Source: an uncultured Chryseobacterium sp. (GTDB lineage: Bacteria > Bacteroidota > Bacteroidia > UBA10329). From it: DNA of 64,000 nt. Each line of letters starts with the position of its first letter. The stretch's first letter is position 1. The DNA is taken from the NCBI GenBank assembly GCA_964457245.1, contig CAYWET010000009.1, positions 25,284 through 89,283 on the forward strand. Reading direction: 5' to 3'. This document shows positions 34,844 through 45,209 of this stretch, one piece after another. A program made the translations under genes and the position numbers. Below the pieces are notes generated by a model. It saw only the letters and a program-made list of their open reading frames with translations, was not told the origin of the DNA and ran no database searches.

Positions 34844-35803
34844 TTAAGGCTCCACAACAGGTGTAAGGGAAAAGTTGAATTCGTAGCTGTTGCCAGCTTC
34901 TACTTCAATGGGAGTGGAAGAGGGTTCGAAGTTTTCTGCTGTGGCTTCCAGCGTTGCGGAAAATGTGGTAGCTGGCGGGACATCGGTAAATTCCATTTCA
35001 TAGCTGCCATCATCTGTAGTTGTGGTTATTATCGGGTCGCCCCCATCACTTGGTATGAGCGTTACCGTTGCGCCAACTATTGGGGAGGATGTGCTATTGT
35101 CGGAGACGTTACCTGAAATGGTGATGGAGTTATCTGGAGTTGGTGGCGTGGTGGAGCCTCCGCGGTCAATGATGATACGTGCCTGCTTGTAAGCTGCATA
35201 AAGGTCTGGGTCTGAGAGTTTGAAGACCATCATGAGCGGGTCGAGTTGTGATTTGAATAGGCTTCCCGTATTGGAGAAGAGCGTTTTGAGGGCTTCGGTA
35301 TGAAGGTGGCGAGCGTTGATGGCTTCTCTGGGTGTTTCGAGTACGGCCGTGTAAGCATCTAAGGCGTCTTGCCATGCGGTGACGGCCGCTGCATCTATAC
35401 CATAATCAGCAAGGCTTGCGATGTTATCGTTTACGAGGGAGATGCGATAATCGCAGAACCCTTGCATGGTATCATCTTTTATGCGTTGGATGTCACTGAG
35501 GGAGTAATCGAACTCTGCGGCCAAGGTGTTGTTTTCTGTGGCCAGCGCCCATGCCTTGGCGGCTGCGAGTGTTACGGCCGTGATATTATCTAATGTGATT
35601 CTGATGGCGGACTTATCCTGCGCTACACCAGTTGTGTTGGTGGATTGACCCGCTATTTCTGCGTTGATGGCGGTAATGTTGGTGTTGAGTTGGCCGAAGG
35701 CGGTTGCACGAGCAGCCACCAGATCTATGGTAGCTTGATTGTCTTCGTAAAAATCCTGTACCACGAGGTACATATCCAGTCTGTTTGATTGTGAATCTGT
35801 CAT
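34844..35803 (-). CDS. hypothetical protein (helical N-domain + Thr/Ser-rich beta-sandwich-like C-domain)
   Basis: 319 aa; C-terminal VTLIPSDGGDPIITTTTDDGSYEMEF resembles a carboxypeptidase-regulatory/Ig-like module. Confidence 0.55.
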   Translation of the reverse strand: MTDSQSNRLDMYLVVQDFYEDNQATIDLVAARATAFGQLNTNITAINAEIAGQSTNTTGVAQDKSAIRITLDNITAVTLAAAKAWALATENNTLAAEFDYSLSDIQRIKDDTMQGFCDYRISLVNDNIASLADYGIDAAAVTAWQDALDAYTAVLETPREAINARHLHTEALKTLFSNTGSLFKSQLDPLMMVFKLSDPDLYAAYKQARIIIDRGGSTTPPTPDNSITISGNVSDNSTSSPIVGATVTLIPSDGGDPIITTTTDDGSYEMEFTDVPPATTFSATLEATAENFEPSSTPIEVEAGNSYEFNFSLTPVVEP

Positions 35804-36182
35804 GATTTCTCTGTTTTATGCCGACCGACCCGCTGAGCAGGCCGATCGGCTGGTTACTGTATTTAAAACATGGGGTGGATGGCTGAAATTGCAAGTGGGC
35901 TGAGATACCCTTTTTGTGAAGACCATGAAGCGACACTTGCGATTCTTGAAGCGGTTGTGGTGCTACTGTAAGCTGATGGTGAATAACCGAAAGCTGTTGT
36001 TGCGATACCATAAGCTGTGTTTGACCAACTATAAGTAGTGTTTGAGTTGCTGGAAGTGGTTGTGAGGAAACCGTTAGTGGTAGTTTGAGAACCAGAAGCT
36101 GCCATTGCTTCACATTTTTTGGCTTTTGGTAAACACTAAGCACGCGTTTATGCCGTTCTACATGGTGTTGAATTGAGGAATT

Positions 36183-36506
36183 ATGCTGATTTTGAACTTA
36201 AAACGGTTAATTGAGATGCGCGGAGTGAAGCATTTGCGCACGTACCTCGTAAATCATGGGTTTACGGACGGGGAGGCCCGAAATCTGGTAAGTGGTGAGA
36301 CGCGCTTGCTGCGTTTGACGCTGATAACGCGGTTATGCGAGGTGTTTGATTGCACCCCGAATGAGCTATTGGATTGGCAAGGCGACCCAACTCATGTACT
36401 GGCTGCTGTTAGCAAGAGTAAAGCACCCGATATCTGGAAGATGCTGGAGGGTAAGAGTGCTGAGGAGTTGGAGGAGGTTTTGAGGAGGCTTTCTGAGGGG
36501 GATTGA
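36183..36506 (+). CDS. XRE-family helix-turn-helix transcriptional regulator
   Basis: 107 aa; Cro/C1-type HTH (LRTYLVNHGFTDGEARNLVSGETRLLRLTLITRLCEVFDCTPNELL). Confidence 0.7.
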   Translation: MLILNLKRLIEMRGVKHLRTYLVNHGFTDGEARNLVSGETRLLRLTLITRLCEVFDCTPNELLDWQGDPTHVLAAVSKSKAPDIWKMLEGKSAEELEEVLRRLSEGD

Positions 36507-36598
36507 TGTCATACTAATGCGCTTGATGATTCTGATTGAGACCTATAGGTTGACAAAACATATTTTATTTGTAAATTTGTCAACCAATTATTTACACC

Positions 36599-37672
36599 AT
36601 GGCAGAAAGTGAAAATCTTTTCGGGATTAGGTTGAAACTGGCTCGCAAGAGAGCTGGTCTTTCGCTTAGGGAATTATCTGAATTGCTGGGAGGACGAGTC
36701 TCGAAACAAGCCCTAAACAAATATGAACAGGGTCAAATGAAGCCGTCAAATGAAGTGCTTCTTTATTTGTCAAGGAGCCTTGGTGTCAAACCGGATTATT
36801 TCTTGCAATCCATGCCCGTTGATTTAGGTCAGATTTCCTTCAGGAAGCGGTCGGATTTAAGCAAGAAGGATGAAGAAGTAATTATTGAAAAAGCACGAGA
36901 CTATGTTGAGCGATGTCTGAATGTTGAAAGCTTATTGTCGATTAAACGACAGTTCGAAAACCCTATTAAAAACTTAACTGTCTCTACTAAGAAAGAGGCG
37001 GAACAAGCTGCCGATGCTCTAAGAAAAGCGTGGGAATTAGGAGTAAATCCAATTTCAAACCTAACTGAGATGCTTGAACTGAAAGGCGTTAAGGTTATGT
37101 TGATTGAGGCTACTGATAAGTTTGATGGACTAGCTGTATACGCGGAATCGAATACTCCCATAGTTGTGGTCAACCTTAAGAATAAACCGATTGAAAGACT
37201 ACGGTTTACCATTGTACATGAACTTGCTCACATTTTACTGACCATTCATGATTCAATTAAAGGCAACGATAAATTCATAGAGAAGCTTTGTCATCGTTTT
37301 GCGAGTGCATTTCTGATTCCTTCGGTTAAGCTGATTGAGCTTATCGGTAGTGTCAAAAGAAAGTACATCCAAATAAAAGAGCTCATTTCAATAAAGGAGT
37401 ATTATGGAATTTCGATTAGAGCGATTGTTCATAGACTGAAGGAATTGGAAGTAATAAGTGAAACTTATCATCGGAGGTGGTCAATCTGGCTGAATAAAGA
37501 GTTTGGAAGTAAAAGTGAACCTGGGGACTACATTGGTAAAGAAGAGTCCATGGTATTGCTTAGCCATGTCAACCATGCGCTAGCTGAAGAGATAATCTCC
37601 ATGAGCAAAGCAGCATTTCTCTTGGATGTTAATGTAGCAGATATTCGAAGGTGGCATTTTGAAGAGCAATAA
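36599..37672 (+). CDS. XRE HTH + ImmA/IrrE-family zinc metallopeptidase fusion regulator
   Basis: 357 aa; N-terminal HTH (IRLKLARKRAGLSLRELSELLG...SKQALNKYEQG), C-terminal HEXXH (TIVHELAHILL) M78-type peptidase domain. Confidence 0.85.
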   Translation: MAESENLFGIRLKLARKRAGLSLRELSELLGGRVSKQALNKYEQGQMKPSNEVLLYLSRSLGVKPDYFLQSMPVDLGQISFRKRSDLSKKDEEVIIEKARDYVERCLNVESLLSIKRQFENPIKNLTVSTKKEAEQAADALRKAWELGVNPISNLTEMLELKGVKVMLIEATDKFDGLAVYAESNTPIVVVNLKNKPIERLRFTIVHELAHILLTIHDSIKGNDKFIEKLCHRFASAFLIPSVKLIELIGSVKRKYIQIKELISIKEYYGISIRAIVHRLKELEVISETYHRRWSIWLNKEFGSKSEPGDYIGKEESMVLLSHVNHALAEEIISMSKAAFLLDVNVADIRRWHFEEQ

Positions 37673-38195
37673 GGAAATACTGATACAAGATGCCTGCATC
37701 CTCATTGACCTAATTGAAGTTGGGTTGATTGAAGAGTGTTTCCAACTCGGATATGAGTTCATTACAACGCGAAATGTGGTGTTTGAAATAGAGGATGATT
37801 ATCAATCCCGAATACTTACACAAGTAATTGGCGACCATAAACTTTTTGTTCGCGCTACCAGTGACAGTCAAGTGAATGGTCTTCAAAGCCAATTCTCCGG
37901 CCTGTCTCTTGCAGATTGCTCGGTCATGTCGTTAGGAATTAGCTTGAAATGTCGGGTTTTGACTGCGGATGGGGCATTGAGAAAAATTTGTCAGGAAAAA
38001 GGGGTTAGGGTAGGTGGTTTTTTATGGGTGCTCAACCAACTTGTTAAATCAAATACAATTTCGCCCAACCGCGGTATAACCGCTTTAGACAAATACTCGA
38101 TGGTTAACCAAAGACCCGCGCCTAAGCATGCCGTTCAGGGACTCCGGAAAGAGTTTGTTATATTGGCAGATGAAACTAACAACACCAAGATTTGA
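37659..38195 (+). CDS. PIN-like domain nuclease (DUF4411-like)
   Basis: 178 aa; acidic residues in PIN pattern (ILIQDACILIDL ... EIEDD ... SLADCS ... VLTADGAL); 14-nt overlap with upstream ImmA gene. Confidence 0.6.
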   Translation: MKSNKEILIQDACILIDLIEVGLIEECFQLGYEFITTRNVVFEIEDDYQSRILTQVIGDHKLFVRATSDSQVNGLQSQFSGLSLADCSVMSLGISLKCRVLTADGALRKICQEKGVRVGGFLWVLNQLVKSNTISPNRGITALDKYSMVNQRPAPKHAVQGLRKEFVILADETNNTKI

Positions 38196-38963
38196 ATGGA
38201 TTATAGCTCGGAGTTTCCAGTATTCCTTGCATTTGCAGCCTTGACTTGGGGAGCATTTTTTGGTGCCTTGGGTAACAAACTGGTTGCGATTAACTACAGT
38301 TCTAGATGGAGAAATGCTTACTACGCATTGGGCGGGGTTTCTATGTTGGTTGGCGTTGCTGGTTTTTTAGTGATTGAGGAGCTAAAACTTTTGGATTGGG
38401 GTGTCCTTATCATGTTGGTGATATCTGGATTGGTCATACTTTACTTTACCTGGAAAGTACTCCACACAAAGGATGTTTTTCAGACGGCTGAATTGGCCTC
38501 CAAAATAAATGGGTTTACAGAACTAGCGGATAGAGGTAAGATATGTTTGCTTGGAGGAGACTTAGACTTCTTCGGTGAGACAGAATCGGACATGGATGAT
38601 AATGACCAATACAAGTTTTTGAAGAATAAAAATTTCACTAGTGTGTCAATTCTATGTGAGGAGCCAATCCATCCAAATACAAAGACCAGATATGGCAAAA
38701 TTCTACGCGATATAAGAGGAACAGAACTGGGTTTTTATAACCCTAAGAATGCAGACTTGAATATCCGAGGTCGGATAACAACAAGGCAAGGAGTACCTAA
38801 GATGCTGATTTATTCTAAGCTTGAAACAAATCAATACAAAGCCATTGAAACTGACACGGCAAATTCTAATGGGGCGTTGTACTCAAATATATGGGGTTTG
38901 GCTTGGAGCCTCGCTACTAAAATGACACCCGAAGAAGTCCAGAGACTAAAGGATAACAGTTGA
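38196..38963 (+). CDS. membrane protein with N-terminal 3 TM helices and uncharacterised cytoplasmic C-terminal domain
   Basis: 255 aa; TM helices at ~8-30, 45-65, 70-90; starts 1 nt after PIN-like stop. Confidence 0.6.
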   Translation: MDYSSEFPVFLAFAALTWGAFFGALGNKLVAINYSSRWRNAYYALGGVSMLVGVAGFLVIEELKLLDWGVLIMLVISGLVILYFTWKVLHTKDVFQTAELASKINGFTELADRGKICLLGGDLDFFGETESDMDDNDQYKFLKNKNFTSVSILCEEPIHPNTKTRYGKILRDIRGTELGFYNPKNADLNIRGRITTRQGVPKMLIYSKLETNQYKAIETDTANSNGALYSNIWGLAWSLATKMTPEEVQRLKDNS

Positions 38964-40354
38964 TGTTGGATTCGCTCGAAATAGTAATTGTTAATTCTCC
39001 GTTGTTCAGGGAGTCTAGTGATAAGTATGACGAAGATTCACTACCTCCCTTAGGCTTGGGCTACATCGCAACAGAGTTAAAAATAAGAGGTTTCAAGGTT
39101 AGGTTAATTGATGCTGTAGACCAGAGAATTCCATTGGTGGATTTATTGAAATCCTTGAACAAGAACAAGCCAAGGTTCGTTGCTACGAACATATTTACCA
39201 CGAACTACGAATTGGTAAAGGAACTTATAGAGGGATTAGATTTTCAATCTCACATTATTGTCGGTGGGCTAGCAACGAAGGATCTCTACGAAAAAATATT
39301 TTCATGGAATACCATGAACAATATTGATGTTGTTGTTGGGGATGGCGAGTTTATAGTCCCGGCTATTGTTGGGCGGAATGTGGAGCAACAACCAGTCGCT
39401 TCTCAGCCTTACCGTAGAGCTTTTCAGGTGGATAAGAATTCTCCCTATGTAGTTGAAGACATTTCCCAGGTGTCATTAGATCGTTCGTTCTTTAAAAATG
39501 AGCCTATTCGCCACCCATTTGGCTTTTCTGAGGCAAATATTGTTGCGAGTAGAGGCTGTATTTACAACTGTGCTTTTTGTGCGGCTGCTCGAAGCCTAAA
39601 CCTTGACTACCCTGTCAGAGAACGTTCTGTTCAATCAATTAAGAATGAATTAAGAGAAATTGCTGCAGACTACCCGGAAGTTAGTTCAATTCGGGTGCTG
39701 GATGATTTGTTTTTAAAAAACTCAAAGAGCGTTAATACAGCAATTCAGGTATTTCAAGGGGAAGGTTTCCAATGGCGATCAATGGCCCATGTCATGACAT
39801 TTGACAAGCTGGATGCAGAACCTTTAGCAAGATTAAAGGATAGTGGCTGCAAGGAGTTGTTCATTGGTGTCGAATCTGGATCTCCTAAGGTTCTAAAATC
39901 AATCAGAAAGACCCCAGACCGCAATAGAATCACAACCAACATATTGAAAGTTTTTAAAGCTGGAATTGATGTGAAAGGGTACTTTATTTACGGTTTCCCA
40001 GAAGAGACCGAGGCTGATATGAAGCTGACACTCGACTTAGCCAAAGAGTTAGTCAAACAGGCAGAAGCCAATGGTGTTTCCTTCAGGACAAGTGTGTTTC
40101 AGTATCGACCGTATCACGGAACGGAAATTCACCGTTCGTTAGCAAATCAAGGTAAGGAGCTTGACGTGAAACGAGTTCAACAGAATGATGAACTTTCTGA
40201 ATTGGTCGGCAGACTTCAATTCAATTTCCATAGTGGGAATTATTCGAAAGTGTCTGACCAAAGACTGCATGATTATATTTACCGGACAACTTTGCTAAAT
40301 GATCCGGAACTCTTCTCAGGAAAAGCCTTTAAGACTGAATCCAAGAGAGCGTAG
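38960..40354 (+). CDS. B12-binding-domain radical SAM protein (class B)
   Basis: 464 aa; N-terminal Rossmann-like cobalamin-binding domain (GLGYIATELKIRGFKVRLIDA), CxxxCxxC (RGCIYNCAFCAA), TIM-barrel rSAM core; 4-nt overlap with upstream gene. Confidence 0.85.
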   Translation: MMLDSLEIVIVNSPLFRESSDKYDEDSLPPLGLGYIATELKIRGFKVRLIDAVDQRIPLVDLLKSLNKNKPRFVATNIFTTNYELVKELIEGLDFQSHIIVGGLATKDLYEKIFSWNTMNNIDVVVGDGEFIVPAIVGRNVEQQPVASQPYRRAFQVDKNSPYVVEDISQVSLDRSFFKNEPIRHPFGFSEANIVASRGCIYNCAFCAAARSLNLDYPVRERSVQSIKNELREIAADYPEVSSIRVLDDLFLKNSKSVNTAIQVFQGEGFQWRSMAHVMTFDKLDAEPLARLKDSGCKELFIGVESGSPKVLKSIRKTPDRNRITTNILKVFKAGIDVKGYFIYGFPEETEADMKLTLDLAKELVKQAEANGVSFRTSVFQYRPYHGTEIHRSLANQGKELDVKRVQQNDELSELVGRLQFNFHSGNYSKVSDQRLHDYIYRTTLLNDPELFSGKAFKTESKRA

Positions 40355-40928
40355 TGCGTGTAAGGCGTGTGGCCTTTATTTGAATCAACTTCCATTACTA
40401 GACAAGACTAAAAAAGGTCAGGTATTCTGGGTTGGTCTATCGGCTGTTCAAATGGAAGAAGATCAGCCTCCATTATCGTATGACACAAGGTCGGGTTCTC
40501 TAGTTGCAGAAGTAGAAAATCCCTTCGTCAAAGAACTTTCGTTCTATAGAACCAACGTGGTGAAATGCTTGCCATTAAATTTGGATGATAAGATTCGATA
40601 TCCACTAAAGGGTGAGATGGAGAAATGTTTTCCAAATCTTGAAGAAGAAATCGATTTTTTGCAACCCTCGATTATTTTTTTGCTAGGTAGGCAAGCTGCT
40701 GATTTTGTCATGCGGAAATACGGCTTTGGTTCTTGGAGTCTTAATGCTGAGTTTAATTACGAAGCTTATCATTCTTCTGGAATGACTTTTATTCCAGTGC
40801 ATCATCCATCATATATACTTGTTTACAAGAGGAAGCGACTGATAGATTATGTTCAAGGAATTCAAAAACATCTGACCCAATTAGTAGCAAAACCTATTAG
40901 TTTGAGCGAGCATGTCGAGCAACCATAA
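40299..40928 (+). CDS. uracil-DNA glycosylase superfamily (family-4-like) protein, divergent active site
   Basis: 209 aa; C21-x2-C24...C90...C110 like the family-4 4Fe-4S ligands, C-terminal VHHPSYIL (HPS motif B), but motif A GE(A/G)PG replaced by VGLSAV; start uncertain (56-nt overlap with rSAM gene). Confidence 0.65.
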   Translation: MIRNSSQEKPLRLNPRERSACKACGLYLNQLPLLDKTKKGQVFWVGLSAVQMEEDQPPLSYDTRSGSLVAEVENPFVKELSFYRTNVVKCLPLNLDDKIRYPLKGEMEKCFPNLEEEIDFLQPSIIFLLGRQAADFVMRKYGFGSWSLNAEFNYEAYHSSGMTFIPVHHPSYILVYKRKRLIDYVQGIQKHLTQLVAKPISLSEHVEQP

Positions 40929-41715: not shown

Positions 41716-41937
41716 ATGATGAAATTGTCGAACAAGAGTGTGCCGAAACTTTATGCCATTTACAAGAATGGCAATCATTTGGGTAATGAAAGAGGTGCAA
41801 CACCACAGGATGCGATTGAAAATTATGTCAAGGCAGCGTTACTTGGTGAGTTCTTAATTGATAAAGAATTCATGCAATTGTATTCAGCAAAGGTTGCAAA
41901 GCCTGGAAAGCATTTTATTGCAAGCACTTTGCGCTGA
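41716..41937 (+). CDS. small hypothetical protein (last ORF of operon)
   Basis: 73 aa; begins 6 nt after HNH stop; no motif; could be spurious. Confidence 0.35.
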   Translation: MMKLSNKSVPKLYAIYKNGNHLGNERGATPQDAIENYVKAALLGEFLIDKEFMQLYSAKVAKPGKHFIASTLR

Positions 41938-42319: not shown

Positions 42320-43729
42320 ATGAAATCGCTTATCTCCTTCGTTGCGGCTTTGCTGCTTACTGGTGTTTCTTTTCAGTCCTTTGCTCAAGGATGTTCTCCT
42401 AACCCTGTTTTTGCCAACTCAGGTGTTGGTGTTTACCCGTCTGGTATTCAGATGGATTGCAGTGGCACCAACGCCAGTGCAACCGTTATCGGGTTGACGG
42501 ATACCACGCTGGGTGGTCTTTCTACTGCCTATTTTGATGCCATGCGCGTTCTTGCTGTAGAGGGGCTTCCTGCTGGGCTTGTTGTAGAAACAGATGTGAT
42601 GAACAGTGCCACCGCAGGTTCTCCGTTTGGAGTGTGGGCTTACTCTGGTTCGCAACCCGTGTTCGACCCTTCTGTTGGATGTCTGAATATTTCCGGTACG
42701 GCTGTTGATTGGGCCGCGGCAGCTATCGGAGGTCCAAACAACGATGGTGTATTCCCATTGAAGATTATAGCAGATTATCGGATTGCATACACCGATCCCG
42801 ACATGACCCCGCTTGGGGTGACTAATGGAGAATGGCTTGTCAATACGGCTTTGTCGATTCCAGCTGACACGATTCAGGCCCACCTTTACGTAAACCAATC
42901 TTCTTGCGGGGCTACGCTTTTTGTTTCCACTCAGGTTACGGCCAATACCGATACAACGCAAGGTTGTGACGGTTCGGCAACGGTTGAGGTCTATAACGGC
43001 CAGCCGCCTTACACTTACTCATTCTCTAATGGAGTGGTAACTCCAACTGCTTCAGGACTTTGTCCGGGAACGTACACGGTAGATGTGGTAGATGCCAACG
43101 GAGAAGTGGGTACAGCGGCTTTTGCGGTGGGAGTTGCTTCTAATGTTTACTCCAATGTGAATCCGATTGGATTTCCTCCTGGATTGGACTCGATATTTGG
43201 TTCTTATCAAACCTGTGACCTAGACTATTCTCTTCCAATTGACTCGTTTATGGTCACCCAAGCTTTTACCGGTGGAACAGACACGCTACTTGTGGAGTGG
43301 GTTGTTTATCAGCTTGGTCAGCCATACACGCTTCTAAGCTTTTATCCTGCATTGGGGAATAATCAGGCAGTTGTATCGCTTACATTGTTCTGCGAGAATG
43401 GACGTTCGGAAGCAGGTGTTTTCCAGCTATACGATTACGTAGACCTAGATGCAACGGGTGTTGAGGAGCAAGCGCAGCAGTTGCAGTTCTCGGTTATGCC
43501 GAACCCAACAAGTGGTTTGCCTACGTTGCAATTAGATGCATTGGTGCAACAAGCTCGGGTTGATGTGTTCGACCCTACTGGTAAGCGGGTGCTATCACAG
43601 AACCTATCAGTAGCTGGGAACAATCAAATTGACCTTCAGCACCTCGCAGATGGGTTGTACACGCTTCGGGTTTCTACCCAGCATGGTTTTGGTGTGAAGC
43701 GGATTGTGAAAGCGGGTGGTGTGAGGTAG
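42320..43729 (+). CDS. T9SS sorting-domain cargo protein (paralogue A)
   Basis: 469 aa; signal peptide, C-terminal ...NPTSGLPTLQLDA...DGLYTLRVSTQHGFGVKRIVKA CTD. Confidence 0.85.
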   Translation: MKSLISFVAALLLTGVSFQSFAQGCSPNPVFANSGVGVYPSGIQMDCSGTNASATVIGLTDTTLGGLSTAYFDAMRVLAVEGLPAGLVVETDVMNSATAGSPFGVWAYSGSQPVFDPSVGCLNISGTAVDWAAAAIGGPNNDGVFPLKIIADYRIAYTDPDMTPLGVTNGEWLVNTALSIPADTIQAHLYVNQSSCGATLFVSTQVTANTDTTQGCDGSATVEVYNGQPPYTYSFSNGVVTPTASGLCPGTYTVDVVDANGEVGTAAFAVGVASNVYSNVNPIGFPPGLDSIFGSYQTCDLDYSLPIDSFMVTQAFTGGTDTLLVEWVVYQLGQPYTLLSFYPALGNNQAVVSLTLFCENGRSEAGVFQLYDYVDLDATGVEEQAQQLQFSVMPNPTSGLPTLQLDALVQQARVDVFDPTGKRVLSQNLSVAGNNQIDLQHLADGLYTLRVSTQHGFGVKRIVKAGGVR

Positions 43730-43778: not shown

Positions 43779-45209
43779 ATGATATACCTACTGCGTCTTA
43801 GTTGTGCCATTGCTATTCTATTTGTTTCGGCAAGTGCATTCGGTCAGTGTAACCCCGATCCCGCCTTTGCCTCATCGCCATTCGGTATTTATCCGGTAGG
43901 GCCAATGCAGATGGATTGCAGCGGAACCAACTCCAACGTAACTGTTGTTGGCCTTTCAGATACAATTATCGAAATTATACCCAACGGATCAAGCGCAACC
44001 GTGTATTTTGATGCCACCCGTGTTGATACGGTCATCGGGTTGCCCACAGGGCTTTCTGTTGAAACAGATGTAATGGACAGTGCCAATGCGGAGTCGCCTT
44101 ACGGCTTTTGGACCTACACTGGGGTCAACCCGAATTTTACACCAAGCATAGGATGTATGAATATCACGGGTTCAGCATCTGCTTGGAATACTGCTGCAAC
44201 AGGAGGTCCGAACAACGATGGAGAGTACCCGCTTACCATTACTATAGATAGAAGGGTTGCGTATTCAAATCCGGACATTGCGTTTATTGTTCCGAATGGT
44301 TCTTGGGTTTCGGTTACTGGCAATGCAGAGCTTAGCGCTGATACCGTAGAGGTGTTGCTTCGGGTAAATGAATCCGCATGTTCTGGAGACCTGTCTTTGG
44401 TCCCTGCGGTTACCGCAAGTGCTGATACCTCACAGGGCTGCACTGGGTCTGTAACGGTTGACGTGTATTACGGTCAACCACCATACACGTACCTGTTCTC
44501 TAATGGGACATCGGGCTCTTCTAGTGTTACAGGTCTTTGCCCGGGAGTTTATTCGGTACAGGTATCAGATGCCAATGGCGCATCAGGATATGCCGAGTTT
44601 GCAATAGGCATGGAGGCCAATGTTTATACGAATGTTCCTCCTGGTCCAGTTCCACTAGGAACGGACTCACTGTTCTTCACTTCAGGTAATTGCGATCTGG
44701 ACTATAACCTGCCAGTGGATTCGTTTTCGGTTGTTGATGCATTTGCCTTTGGTAATGATACAATTGCCGCCACATGGGTTATTTATCAGCTGGGTAACCC
44801 TTATACCGTGGTTTCATTTTATCCAGATGGGAACCCCCAGCCAACTGTATTGTCGTTAGTGGTTTTTTGTGAGAATGGCCGCGCTGCAACAGGTGTCTTT
44901 CAATTATTTGAATACGTTGACCTCTCTGTTGTAACAGGAATAAGCGATAACGTACATTCGATTGACTTCTCTGTTGTGCCGAACCCGTCCAATGGTCTAT
45001 TCCGCTTGGTTCTCGATAATAATGCTGGCTTAAATTCGGTCGATGTGTTTGACCCAACAGGCAAGTTAGTGCTAACGCAGAACCTGTCGATAGCTGGGAA
45101 CAATCAAATTGACCTTCAGCATCTCGCAGATGGCTTGTACACGCTTCGGGTTTCTTCCCAGAATGGTTTTGGCGTAAAGCGGATTGTGAAAGCTGGTGGG
45201 TTGAGGTAG
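43779..45209 (+). CDS. T9SS sorting-domain cargo protein (paralogue B)
   Basis: 476 aa; ~55-60% identical to paralogue A throughout, last ~120 nt nearly identical at DNA level. Confidence 0.85.
   Translation: MIYLLRLSCAIAILFVSASAFGQCNPDPAFASSPFGIYPVGPMQMDCSGTNSNVTVVGLSDTIIEIIPNGSSATVYFDATRVDTVIGLPTGLSVETDVMDSANAESPYGFWTYTGVNPNFTPSIGCMNITGSASAWNTAATGGPNNDGEYPLTITIDRRVAYSNPDIAFIVPNGSWVSVTGNAELSADTVEVLLRVNESACSGDLSLVPAVTASADTSQGCTGSVTVDVYYGQPPYTYLFSNGTSGSSSVTGLCPGVYSVQVSDANGASGYAEFAIGMEANVYTNVPPGPVPLGTDSLFFTSGNCDLDYNLPVDSFSVVDAFAFGNDTIAATWVIYQLGNPYTVVSFYPDGNPQPTVLSLVVFCENGRAATGVFQLFEYVDLSVVTGISDNVHSIDFSVVPNPSNGLFRLVLDNNAGLNSVDVFDPTGKLVLTQNLSIAGNNQIDLQHLADGLYTLRVSSQNGFGVKRIVKAGGLR

Follow-up and report, generated by a model that had tools for sequence, protein, structure and literature searches.

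The stretch of DNA analysed here, a 64,000-nucleotide piece of contig CAYWET010000009.1 from an uncultured Chryseobacterium sp. (the window), carries a gene pair that encodes a radical S-adenosylmethionine enzyme (rSAM) with a B12-binding-type domain and a protein with the fold of a family 4 uracil-DNA glycosylase (UDG), referred to below as the UDG-like protein. This pair is the core of a widespread, mobile bacterial operon, which probably performs radical chemistry on a thymine- or uracil-type (T/U-type) nucleotide within anti-phage defence. The pair lies in a block of eight close-packed open reading frames (ORFs) on the + strand, and the G+C content of this block is lower than that of its surroundings (approximately 41% versus 45-50%). 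The features of the block are the following:

36183-36506, + strand: small HTH_26 (Cro/C1-type) protein, 107 amino acids, just upstream of the operator
36549-36586, no strand assigned: operator/promoter, a perfect inverted repeat, 13 bp upstream of the HTH-M78 start
36599-37672, + strand: HTH(XRE)-Peptidase_M78 fusion (HTH-M78), RmrA-like, 357 amino acids, predicted autorepressor and trigger switch
37659-38195, + strand: PIN-like nuclease, DUF3368 type, 178 amino acids
38196-38963, + strand: membrane protein, optional component, 255 amino acids, matches no family
38963-40354, + strand: rSAM with B12-binding domain, 463 amino acids from the ATG at 38963 (464 amino acids for the ORF from the TTG at 38960)
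40299-40928, + strand: UDG-fold protein with a predicted [4Fe-4S] cluster, family-4-related clade, 209 amino acids, PF03167
40928-41710, + strand: HNH_2 restriction-type endonuclease (HNH), 260 amino acids, PF13391, lineage-specific passenger
41716-41937, + strand: small ORF after the HNH gene, 73 amino acids, matches no family

The genes of the block overlap or abut each other. The HTH-M78 and PIN genes have 14 nucleotides in common, the rSAM start codon shares the letters TGATG with the stop of the preceding gene, the overlap between the rSAM and UDG-like genes is 56 nucleotides long, and the ATG of the HNH gene lies on the UDG-like stop codon (an ATGA overlap). These junctions indicate a single transcript. 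An earlier reading of the same DNA, made from the sequence only, had placed the two genes at 38960-40928, and this is correct, with the rSAM ORF at 38960-40354 and the UDG-like gene at 40299-40928; the form held in public databases is the 463-amino-acid rSAM product from the ATG at 38963. Between 36000 and 42000, the operon shows a strongly positive GC skew, and the dip in G+C together with the skew is consistent with horizontal acquisition. No flanking direct repeats (att) or tRNA delimiting an island were found in the window. Two proteins encoded nearby with sorting domains of the type IX secretion system, together with the taxonomy of the homologs, assign the host to the Bacteroidota.

Relatives of both proteins are numerous. 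At 90% clustering, 452 UDG-like and 1240 rSAM relatives were obtained, mostly 55-64% identical. In a species-level scan with one genome per species, UDG-like relatives were found in 189 species, spread over Bacteroidota, Ignavibacteria, Nitrospirota, Lachnospiraceae/Oscillospiraceae, Victivallales, a Zetaproteobacterium and DPANN archaea. One cultured carrier is Roseburia inulinivorans DSM 16841 (locus L075), with the gene order Tmk-rSAM-UDG. The genome co-occurrence counts given below cover 80 fetched species-representative loci and the metagenome counts 75 loci (155 together). The rSAM gene lies immediately upstream of the UDG-like gene on the same strand in 77 of the 80 genome loci. In addition, the metagenomic protein P0269 (645 amino acids) combines PF02310, PF04055 and PF03167 in a single chain. 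A recurrence in 77 of the 80 species-representative loci is far beyond chance, and the adjacent, overlapping genes and the natural fusion confirm the rSAM and the UDG-like protein as a genuine conserved functional unit, as the earlier reading had proposed. About a quarter of the loci hold the bare pair without a regulator. The nearest relative of the window operon, locus L161, contains the same five genes, from HTH-M78 to the UDG-like protein, and no HNH gene.

A single viral carrier was found in 2.9 million viral contigs, and it carries the Tmk-rSAM-UDG trio. A phage origin, or a phage hypermodification cluster, was ruled out by this count and by the lack of PHROG matches. Some UDG-like genes occur without the rSAM. 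Locus L012 (1692-3312) has an orphan UDG-like copy directly after a HEPN/RES-domain toxin gene, and L037 and L064 encode N-terminally extended UDG-like proteins of 240 and 307 amino acids. A further protein, P0256 (248 amino acids), joins an N-terminal fragment of the UDG-like clade to an eCIS_core domain (PF13699, E 4e-23); this could reflect either a chimera made in gene calling or a true fusion with the cargo or toxin domain of a contractile injection system.

The UDG-like protein matches the UDG family PF03167 in Pfam with an E-value of 3.1e-17. Its AlphaFold (AF2) model has a mean predicted local distance difference test score (pLDDT) of 81.6 and shows the UDG alpha/beta fold. A Foldseek search with this model returned the family 4 UDG 4zbx as the nearest structure (E 8e-11, TM score 0.61), followed by UdgX, with family 5, SMUG and TDG only distantly similar; the family 5 enzyme 2d3y matched at 6.5e-6, far weaker than family 4, and no UDGb chain was among the phmmer matches. 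The Foldseek neighbours are without exception DNA glycosylases, UdgX or a polymerase-fused UDG. The four cysteines noted earlier, C21, C24, C90 and C110, were confirmed by counting and align to the cluster cysteines of 4zbx, 1l9g and 1ui0. When 79 homologs were aligned with the window protein, no untruncated sequence lacked any of the four, and a family-4 [4Fe-4S] cluster is predicted from these cysteines.

At the place of motif A, the sequence VGLSAV (G46-L-S-A-V50) proved homologous by alignment to VGEAPG/VGEGPG of the family 4 UDGs, and in VHHPSYIL the HHPS aligns with motif B. The residues L47 and S48 of motif A are invariant in the clade. Over the 79 homologs, in all clades, the invariant motifs are W-x-G-L-S, P-L...T63..G, T-N-x-V-K-C-x-P, K-(I/L)-R-Y-P, E106...C, H-H-P-S and Y-K-R-K, and the family has a median isoelectric point (pI) of 9.1; both the motifs and the basic pI span Bacteroidota, Bacillota, Nitrospirota, Ignavibacteria and DPANN archaea. 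Since this set is essentially invariant, the odd motif A is a selected, fixed trait of a distinct UDG clade, as judged from the alignment. The protein thus has the Fe-S UDG fold of the family 4 type, and its motif A departs from the canonical form in the same way throughout the family. The G-L-S-A of motif A resembles GLAPG of family 5 (UDGb), which we take to be a motif A without a polar residue.

Compared with the family 4 UDGs of Sulfolobus tokodaii (4zbx) and Thermus thermophilus (1ui0), the alpha/beta fold, the four cysteines, the T-N-x-V-K-C motif 3 and the H-P-S are common, whereas the UDG-like protein has W-x-G-L-S-A-V in place of G-E-(A/G)-P-G, does not conserve Phe54 and Asn89, and has an extra His (HHPS), the private K-I-R-Y-P and Y-K-R-K motifs, and an rSAM partner. 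It scores below the curated models, with 58.5 bits against a cutoff of 125.3 for TIGR00758, 54.3 against 250 for NF040953 and 25 against 190 for the UdgX model TIGR03914. UdgX is defined by a KRRIH R-loop with the crosslinking His109 (PMC10359453). No KRRIH-like R-loop is present in the UDG-like protein, where this region reads L-N-L-D-D-K-I-R-Y-P.

The uracil pocket of Thermus thermophilus (Tth) UDGa is formed by E41, G42, E47, F54, N80 and H155, of which N80 reads N3 and O4 of uracil. The motif-2 residue H155 is the chief catalytic residue, and the H155S variant loses approximately 10^4-fold of the activity; N89 positions the water with a 6-fold effect, and E41 touches uracil O2 through its main chain, with a cost of approximately 900-fold for E41Q. 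The equivalent of the catalytic Asp of family 1 is Gly or Ala in active family 4 enzymes (PMC5387724). When these positions are mapped by sequence alignment, N86 (N80 in Tth) and H169 (H155 in Tth) are invariant in the UDG-like clade, E41 is replaced by L47 and G42 by S48. The position of the stacking Phe54 is variable (residue 61: P, S, A or Y) and the water-positioning Asn89 is replaced by I or L at residue 99, and both of these are aligned across a 4-residue insertion. Because the equivalents of N80 and H155 are kept, the UDG-like protein should still be able to recognise the U/T ring. It appears to retain what recognition of a uracil or thymine ring and stabilisation of the leaving base need, while the side of the pocket that faces C5/C6 and the sugar appears rebuilt. 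The earlier reading had derived a binding-only module from the missing acidic residue in motif A. This does not follow, as the Asp equivalent of family 4 is already Gly or Ala and H169 and N86 are invariant; the protein may instead be a poor or altered glycosylase. A complete loss of the activity is possible, given the effect of E41Q, but is not predicted.

The rSAM contains a B12-binding domain (PF02310, E 4.5e-12, residues 28-136, 46.3 bits against a cutoff of 32.1) and a Radical_SAM domain (PF04055, E 5.7e-20). Its CxxxCxxC motif (C200/C204/C207) is invariant in 72 sequences, and C297 is the sole further conserved cysteine of the clade, so the enzyme would lack an auxiliary cluster. The AF2 model (pLDDT 82) shows a five-stranded Rossmann-like domain (residues 7-127) followed by the rSAM barrel. 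Pfam, predicted structure and fold search agree that the B12-binding-like Rossmann domain is real. The best Foldseek matches are OxsB (with cobalamin, 2.4e-14), AprD4 (9e-14), MgmA (1.8e-13) and MiaB (1e-11), with insignificant differences between the scores. In OxsB and TsrM, the residue under the corrin is supplied by the loop after strand 3 (PMC13331322). The corresponding loop of the rSAM (N77-I-F-T-T-N82) has N77, F79 and N82 conserved in at least 95% of the 72 sequences, which is suggestive of cobalamin binding.

An assignment to the methylating class-B architecture, as made in the sequence-only reading, is not borne out. Of the nearest folds, OxsB is described in a review as not being a methyltransferase (PMC13331322), AprD4 is a 1,2-diol dehydratase, MgmA is the methyl-coenzyme M reductase glutamine methylase, and MiaB is a tRNA methylthiotransferase with a structure that includes RNA. 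No curated methylase model of NCBIfam is reached, and the equivalog matches are far below their cutoffs (ApyD 98/750, HpnJ 93/578, PhpK 87/600 and MgmA-type 75/360 bits). Methylation would therefore be one option among several for this enzyme. In public annotation, the two genes are named "uracil-DNA glycosylase family protein" and "radical SAM protein / BchE-like".

The pair is accompanied by further genes, which were overlooked in the earlier reading: HTH-M78, PIN-like, membrane protein and thymidylate kinase (dTMP kinase) genes. HTH-M78 contains PF01381 (HTH_3, E 4.5e-13) and PF06114 (E 3.3e-11), and it matches RmrA of PADLOC over its full length (E 6e-60) and also capP (E 1e-16). Its translation has the HELAH zinc motif, an intact HExxH peptidase motif. 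HTH-M78 and the PIN-like protein occur with the pair in 45 of the 80 loci, and L057 and L059 additionally have divergent copies downstream. The operator 13 bp upstream of the HTH-M78 start is the perfect palindrome GGTTGACAAA-N18-TTTGTCAACC (36549-36586). Within the block, the closest resemblance to a sigma-70 promoter (36550-36577, 10/12) overlaps this palindrome, as does a TAAATTTG box, which fits the Bacteroidota -7 consensus TAnnTTTG. With an exact-arm search, the same palindrome in the form GTTGACAA-N18-20-TTGTCAAC was recovered in front of the HTH-M78 gene in 15 of the 42 further loci. With a conserved operator on the promoter in front of the HTH-M78 gene, the operon is very probably autorepressed by its own first gene product. 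ImmA and IrrE resemble HTH-M78, and such switches lift repression upon infection or DNA damage.

The operon resembles the HTH + M78-peptidase controlled defence operons of the RosmerTA and CapH-CapP type in its first gene, which matches RmrA and capP, and in the palindromic operator on its promoter. It differs in its cargo, which consists of the PIN-like protein, the optional membrane protein, the rSAM and the UDG-like protein, where those systems have one RmrT toxin or a CBASS operon, and no downstream gene matches the RmrT models of PADLOC.

The PIN-like protein has a weak match to PF17146 and a PADLOC match to PDC-S70 (1.6e-6), and its homologs are called PF11848 DUF3368. Its residues D11, E43, D86 and D104 are invariant in 39 sequences, and on this basis the active site is read as intact. 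In a reciprocal metagenome scan that started from the PIN-like family, 43 of the 44 loci with at least 2.9 kb downstream carry the rSAM and the UDG-like protein; HTH-M78 lies upstream in nearly all of these loci and the HNH gene is present in none. The membrane protein consists of three N-terminal hydrophobic segments, as seen in hydropathy, and a C-terminal soluble domain, and has no match in Pfam, NCBIfam, PADLOC, PHROG or the PDB. Homologs occur in 22 of the 80 genome loci and in roughly every second metagenome locus, and with few exceptions their genes separate the PIN gene from the rSAM gene. At L052 (8109-8606), L067 (4476-4964) and L081 (10548-11030), members of the 8xMP octameric membrane family (PF24838, below cutoff) lie beside a pair that lacks the 255-amino-acid protein, and different membrane proteins may thus fill the same operon slot.

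A dTMP kinase gene accompanies the pair in 16 of the 80 loci, in two phyla and in two arrangements. The kinases match PF02223 (E approximately 1e-33) and pass the dTMP-kinase cutoff of TIGR00041. In the Bacillota, the gene is translationally coupled upstream of the rSAM gene, and in four Bacteroidota loci it is convergent and immediately downstream. Beyond the kinase genes of the Bacteroidota, the flanks vary (an unknown 600-amino-acid protein, a NOV_C protein and a helicase-REase giant), and the kinases of the two phyla are 37-47% identical to each other. These differing flanks and the likeness across phyla rule out that the linkage is synteny inherited with the housekeeping tmk gene.

In unrelated taxa, the pair has defence genes or mobility genes as neighbours. 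In a Paludibacter metagenome-assembled genome (MAG), a complete Gabija system lies directly upstream (L047, 3142-7247; GajA E 1e-201 and GajB E 6e-166), with two unknown genes (188 and 242 amino acids) between Gabija and the pair. In a Thomasclavelia MAG, GajB is found upstream of Tmk-rSAM-UDG (L069, 540-2492). The R subunit of a Type I restriction enzyme (REase) is encoded near the pair in L061 and L056, and tyrosine or serine recombinases/integrases are present in 19 loci. The association with these genes suggests a defence role for the operon. The PADLOC system PDC-M51A was rejected as the same system, because it gives only a weak match to the rSAM (2e-14) and none to the UDG-like protein.

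A genetic coupling of an rSAM to a family-4-type UDG fold is already known from the SplB-like rSAM that is associated with DUF4130 and a UdgX-type UDG. Thymine or nucleic acid is the predicted target of this association (PMC3765255), which was still uncharacterised in 2026 (bioRxiv 10.64898/2026.08.19.745780). The rSAM of that association carries an HhH domain, lacks a B12-type domain and is partnered by DUF4130. The rSAM of the window, in contrast, has PF02310 and no HhH domain, is coupled to a different UDG clade and has HTH-M78, PIN and dTMP kinase as partners; no DUF4130-like gene is conserved across the 80 loci. The domain composition and the curated-model results rule out identity with the known TIGR03914/TIGR03916-type pair, and the difference that had been pointed out from the sequence alone is upheld for the B12-type Rossmann domain and extends to the lack of HhH and DUF4130.

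Other relatives in architecture or setting are more distant. OxsB, which acts with OxsA in the biosynthesis of oxetanocin A, and other class-1 cobalamin-dependent rSAMs share the N-terminal Rossmann cobalamin-type domain and the barrel, but identity to OxsB is only about 18%, the partner here is a UDG fold and not an HD phosphohydrolase, and the use of cobalamin here is putative. OxsB needs a nucleotide-binding partner protein, and its substrate is a free deoxynucleotide. Prokaryotic viperins (pVips) are likewise rSAMs in defence islands, and a nucleoside monophosphate (NMP) kinase gene adjoins 12% of them and about 20% of the pairs described here. There is no sequence relationship to the viperins, which lack the extra B12-type domain and the obligatory UDG-fold partner of the present system. 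A full-text literature search found no description of the B12-rSAM + UDG pair or of the operon. New here are the UDG clade with its WxGLS, KIRYP and HHPS motifs, this rSAM architecture in a UDG-coupled role and the organisation of the operon; the coupling of rSAM to UDG as such was known.

The reading that is tentatively favoured, with a probability somewhat short of even, is that of a single enzyme made up of the rSAM and the UDG-like protein. Its UDG subunit would flip a T/U-type base of DNA for modification by the rSAM, and in the Bacteroidota this enzyme would be unleashed together with the PIN nuclease when the repressor is inactivated. We infer the following course, from DNA binding by the UDG-like protein and the base concerned to the chemistry, the trigger and the role in defence. 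The two proteins would be subunits of one enzyme encoded on a mobile defence-island operon. The UDG-like subunit would bind DNA, flip out a T/U-type base, possibly a modified phage pyrimidine, and hold it with the C5/C6 side exposed. The 5'-deoxyadenosyl radical of the rSAM, with or without cobalamin, would alter this base by methylation, by other C-C or C-H chemistry, or by formation of a lesion or crosslink, and a possible additional step would be the subsequent cutting of the glycosidic bond by the UDG-like subunit. HTH-M78 would hold the operon off until it is inactivated by infection or DNA damage, as in ImmR/ImmA, DdrO/IrrE and CapH/CapP, and the rSAM/UDG enzyme and the PIN nuclease would then jointly attack the invading nucleic acid.

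This reading is favoured by the linkage of the genes, the fusion in P0269, the fold and cysteines of the UDG-like protein, its invariant KIRYP and YKRK patches, the pI of approximately 9, the operator and the dedicated PIN nuclease. The neighbouring defence and mobility genes, the dip in G+C, the patchy occurrence over distant phyla and the near absence from phages support it as well. To our knowledge, every characterised member of the UDG superfamily acts on DNA. The separate rSAM + UDG association predicted to act on thymines in DNA (PMC3765255) also counts in its favour. Several points weigh against it. Both DNA binding (from fold, charge and precedent) and defence (from association) are indirect deductions. 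The dTMP kinase found in 16 of the 80 loci has no obvious use for a DNA-directed enzyme and points to a free thymidine nucleotide, and OxsB, the best structural neighbour of the rSAM, is a free-nucleotide enzyme. The occurrence of the bare pair without a regulator in about a quarter of the loci argues against indiscriminate toxicity to host DNA. Cobalamin binding, finally, is putative from the sequence, and AprD4, which is not known to use cobalamin, has a similar domain. A broader formulation leaves the target as either phage DNA or a free thymidine nucleotide: an inducible antiviral enzyme under the HTH-M78 switch, in which a UDG-fold subunit with lost or repurposed glycosylase chemistry holds an extrahelical T/U nucleotide and a cobalamin-type rSAM rewrites the base. 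This formulation is possible, and confidence in it is low.

The alternative that survives best is an antiviral nucleotide-analogue synthase comparable to viperin or the oxetanocin enzymes. Here the UDG fold would bind a free dT or dU nucleotide, the rSAM would rearrange or alkylate it, and a dTMP kinase, dedicated or from the host, would push the substrate or product toward a triphosphate that poisons phage DNA synthesis. This is rather unlikely. Support comes from the dTMP kinase, which is found not only in the 16 genome loci but also in the single viral contig and in 2 metagenome loci, and from the top rank of OxsB among the fold matches of the rSAM, although the fold-score differences between OxsB, AprD4, MgmA and MiaB are insignificant and the kinase is absent from 80% of the loci. 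Approximately 12% of bacterial viperins adjoin an NMP kinase, and some are fused to triphosphatase or cyclase domains (10.1101/2023.09.13.557418). In a Woesearchaeota MAG (L080, 10536-11237), a CYTH (triphosphate tunnel metalloenzyme) gene directly follows the UDG-like gene and recalls these viperin-fused triphosphatase or cyclase domains. UdgX has been crystallised with deoxyuridine monophosphate (dUMP; 6ajp), so a UDG pocket can hold a mononucleotide, but we know of no UDG-fold enzyme that acts on free nucleotides. Also, the basic family, the Lys/Arg patches and an Fe-S cluster typical of DNA-scanning glycosylases exceed the needs of mononucleotide binding. The defence-island context applies equally to this synthase and to the favoured base-flipping enzyme.

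Damage-inducible direct repair is improbable. The pair would reverse or remove a pyrimidine lesion, like spore-photoproduct lyase, and HTH-M78 would be a damage switch of the IrrE/DdrO type. The HTH + M78 switches IrrE/DdrO and ImmA/ImmR do respond to DNA damage, and the U/T-reading residues are kept in the UDG-like protein. DNA repair by an rSAM has a precedent, and the linkage of the SplB-like rSAM to UDG has been discussed in an SOS context (PMC3765255). The rSAM of the window, however, is not SplB-like, the dedicated PIN nuclease and the membrane protein have no role in repair, and the patchy, horizontally scattered distribution with integrases, Gabija, restriction-modification (R-M) and toxin genes as neighbours is the pattern of a conflict system.

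An R-M-like unit, in which the rSAM and the UDG-like protein mark host DNA and HNH cuts unmarked or foreign-marked DNA, comes nearest to the sequence-only reading and is very improbable. In the window, the HNH gene is physically attached, as its start overlaps the UDG-like stop, and Pfam detected no conventional methyltransferase in the block. HNH contains PF13391 and matches the HNH model of PADLOC over its full length (E 1.4e-91), which places it with restriction enzymes. It shares the HNH_2 nuclease domain with restriction enzymes of phosphorothioate (PT)-DNA (NF045808), its nuclease domain alone matches 6yex, which we take to be the modification-dependent enzyme VcaM4I, and its N-terminal part of approximately 125 residues matched no known reader domain. 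The family has more than 4300 matches of approximately 257 amino acids, named "putative restriction endonuclease". The attachment does not hold beyond this lineage: none of the 80 genome loci and none of the 75 metagenome loci has the HNH gene, nor does L161, and this largely refutes the R-M-like unit. In addition, an operon that is kept repressed until it is induced runs directly counter to the needs of protective self-modification. Close relatives of HNH stand alone or in unrelated contexts, after an unrelated 183-amino-acid ORF that is not UDG-like, beside an N6/N4 methylase and a HATPase protein, or near a Dam-class methylase. As a component of the system, HNH is ruled out by its absence from all 155 related loci and by these contexts. 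It is an independently mobile restriction-type gene that was inserted at the 3' end of the operon in the lineage of the window. Of the unit proposed earlier, the pair therefore stands and the HNH membership does not. The idea that the two neighbouring genes are unrelated, one for an ordinary uracil-DNA glycosylase and the other for a metabolic B12-rSAM, as in the public gene names, is scarcely credible and already refuted by the adjacency in 77 of 80 loci across phyla, the natural fusion, the private invariant motifs and scores below every curated UDG and rSAM equivalog cutoff.

In L162 (2014-2565) and L163 (1510-2061), the unknown 183-amino-acid ORF, which has no family match, is translationally coupled to HNH relatives with 83% identity to the HNH of the window, and it may be a factor that works with HNH proteins of this subfamily, for instance in immunity or specificity.

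If the proposed function is true, it would be new chemistry for bacterial immunity and for rSAM enzymology, with a DNA-glycosylase fold that delivers the substrate to a cobalamin-type rSAM. With phage DNA as the target, this would be the first radical-SAM/B12 enzyme that acts on a DNA base, and with a free thymidine nucleotide as the target, the product would be a previously unknown antiviral nucleotide analogue. The operon is present in at least 189 species of several phyla and bears on the genomes in which its genes are misnamed "uracil-DNA glycosylase" or "BchE-like cyclase". Two genes make up the minimal unit, and biochemistry could distinguish cleanly between DNA and a free nucleotide as the substrate. 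Either product, a new thymidine analogue or a new enzymatic modification of DNA bases, would also be useful as a tool.

The remaining genes at the edges of the block have no counterparts in the related loci. The small HTH_26 gene upstream of the operator is found in 0 of the 80 loci and may be a leftover of another mobile element or a local regulator. The 73-amino-acid ORF after the HNH gene has no family match, is likewise found in 0 of the 80 loci, and accompanies HNH on the identical contig L001. Upstream of the island, between the gene of a CarboxypepD_reg protein and the block, overlapping mechanical ORFs on the - strand (35613-36143 and, nested within it, 35863-36105) have low-complexity translations rich in Q, S and T and are probably non-coding or a degraded gene. 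Directly downstream of the island, two tandem genes on the + strand (42320-43729 and 43779-45209) encode paralogous secreted proteins of 469 and 476 amino acids with C-terminal sorting domains of the type IX secretion system (T9SS; PF18962), one of them with a SprB repeat. Their C-terminal stretches are near-identical (...NQIDLQHLADGLYTLRVS.Q.GFGVKRIVKAGG), and the two genes look like a recent tandem duplication.

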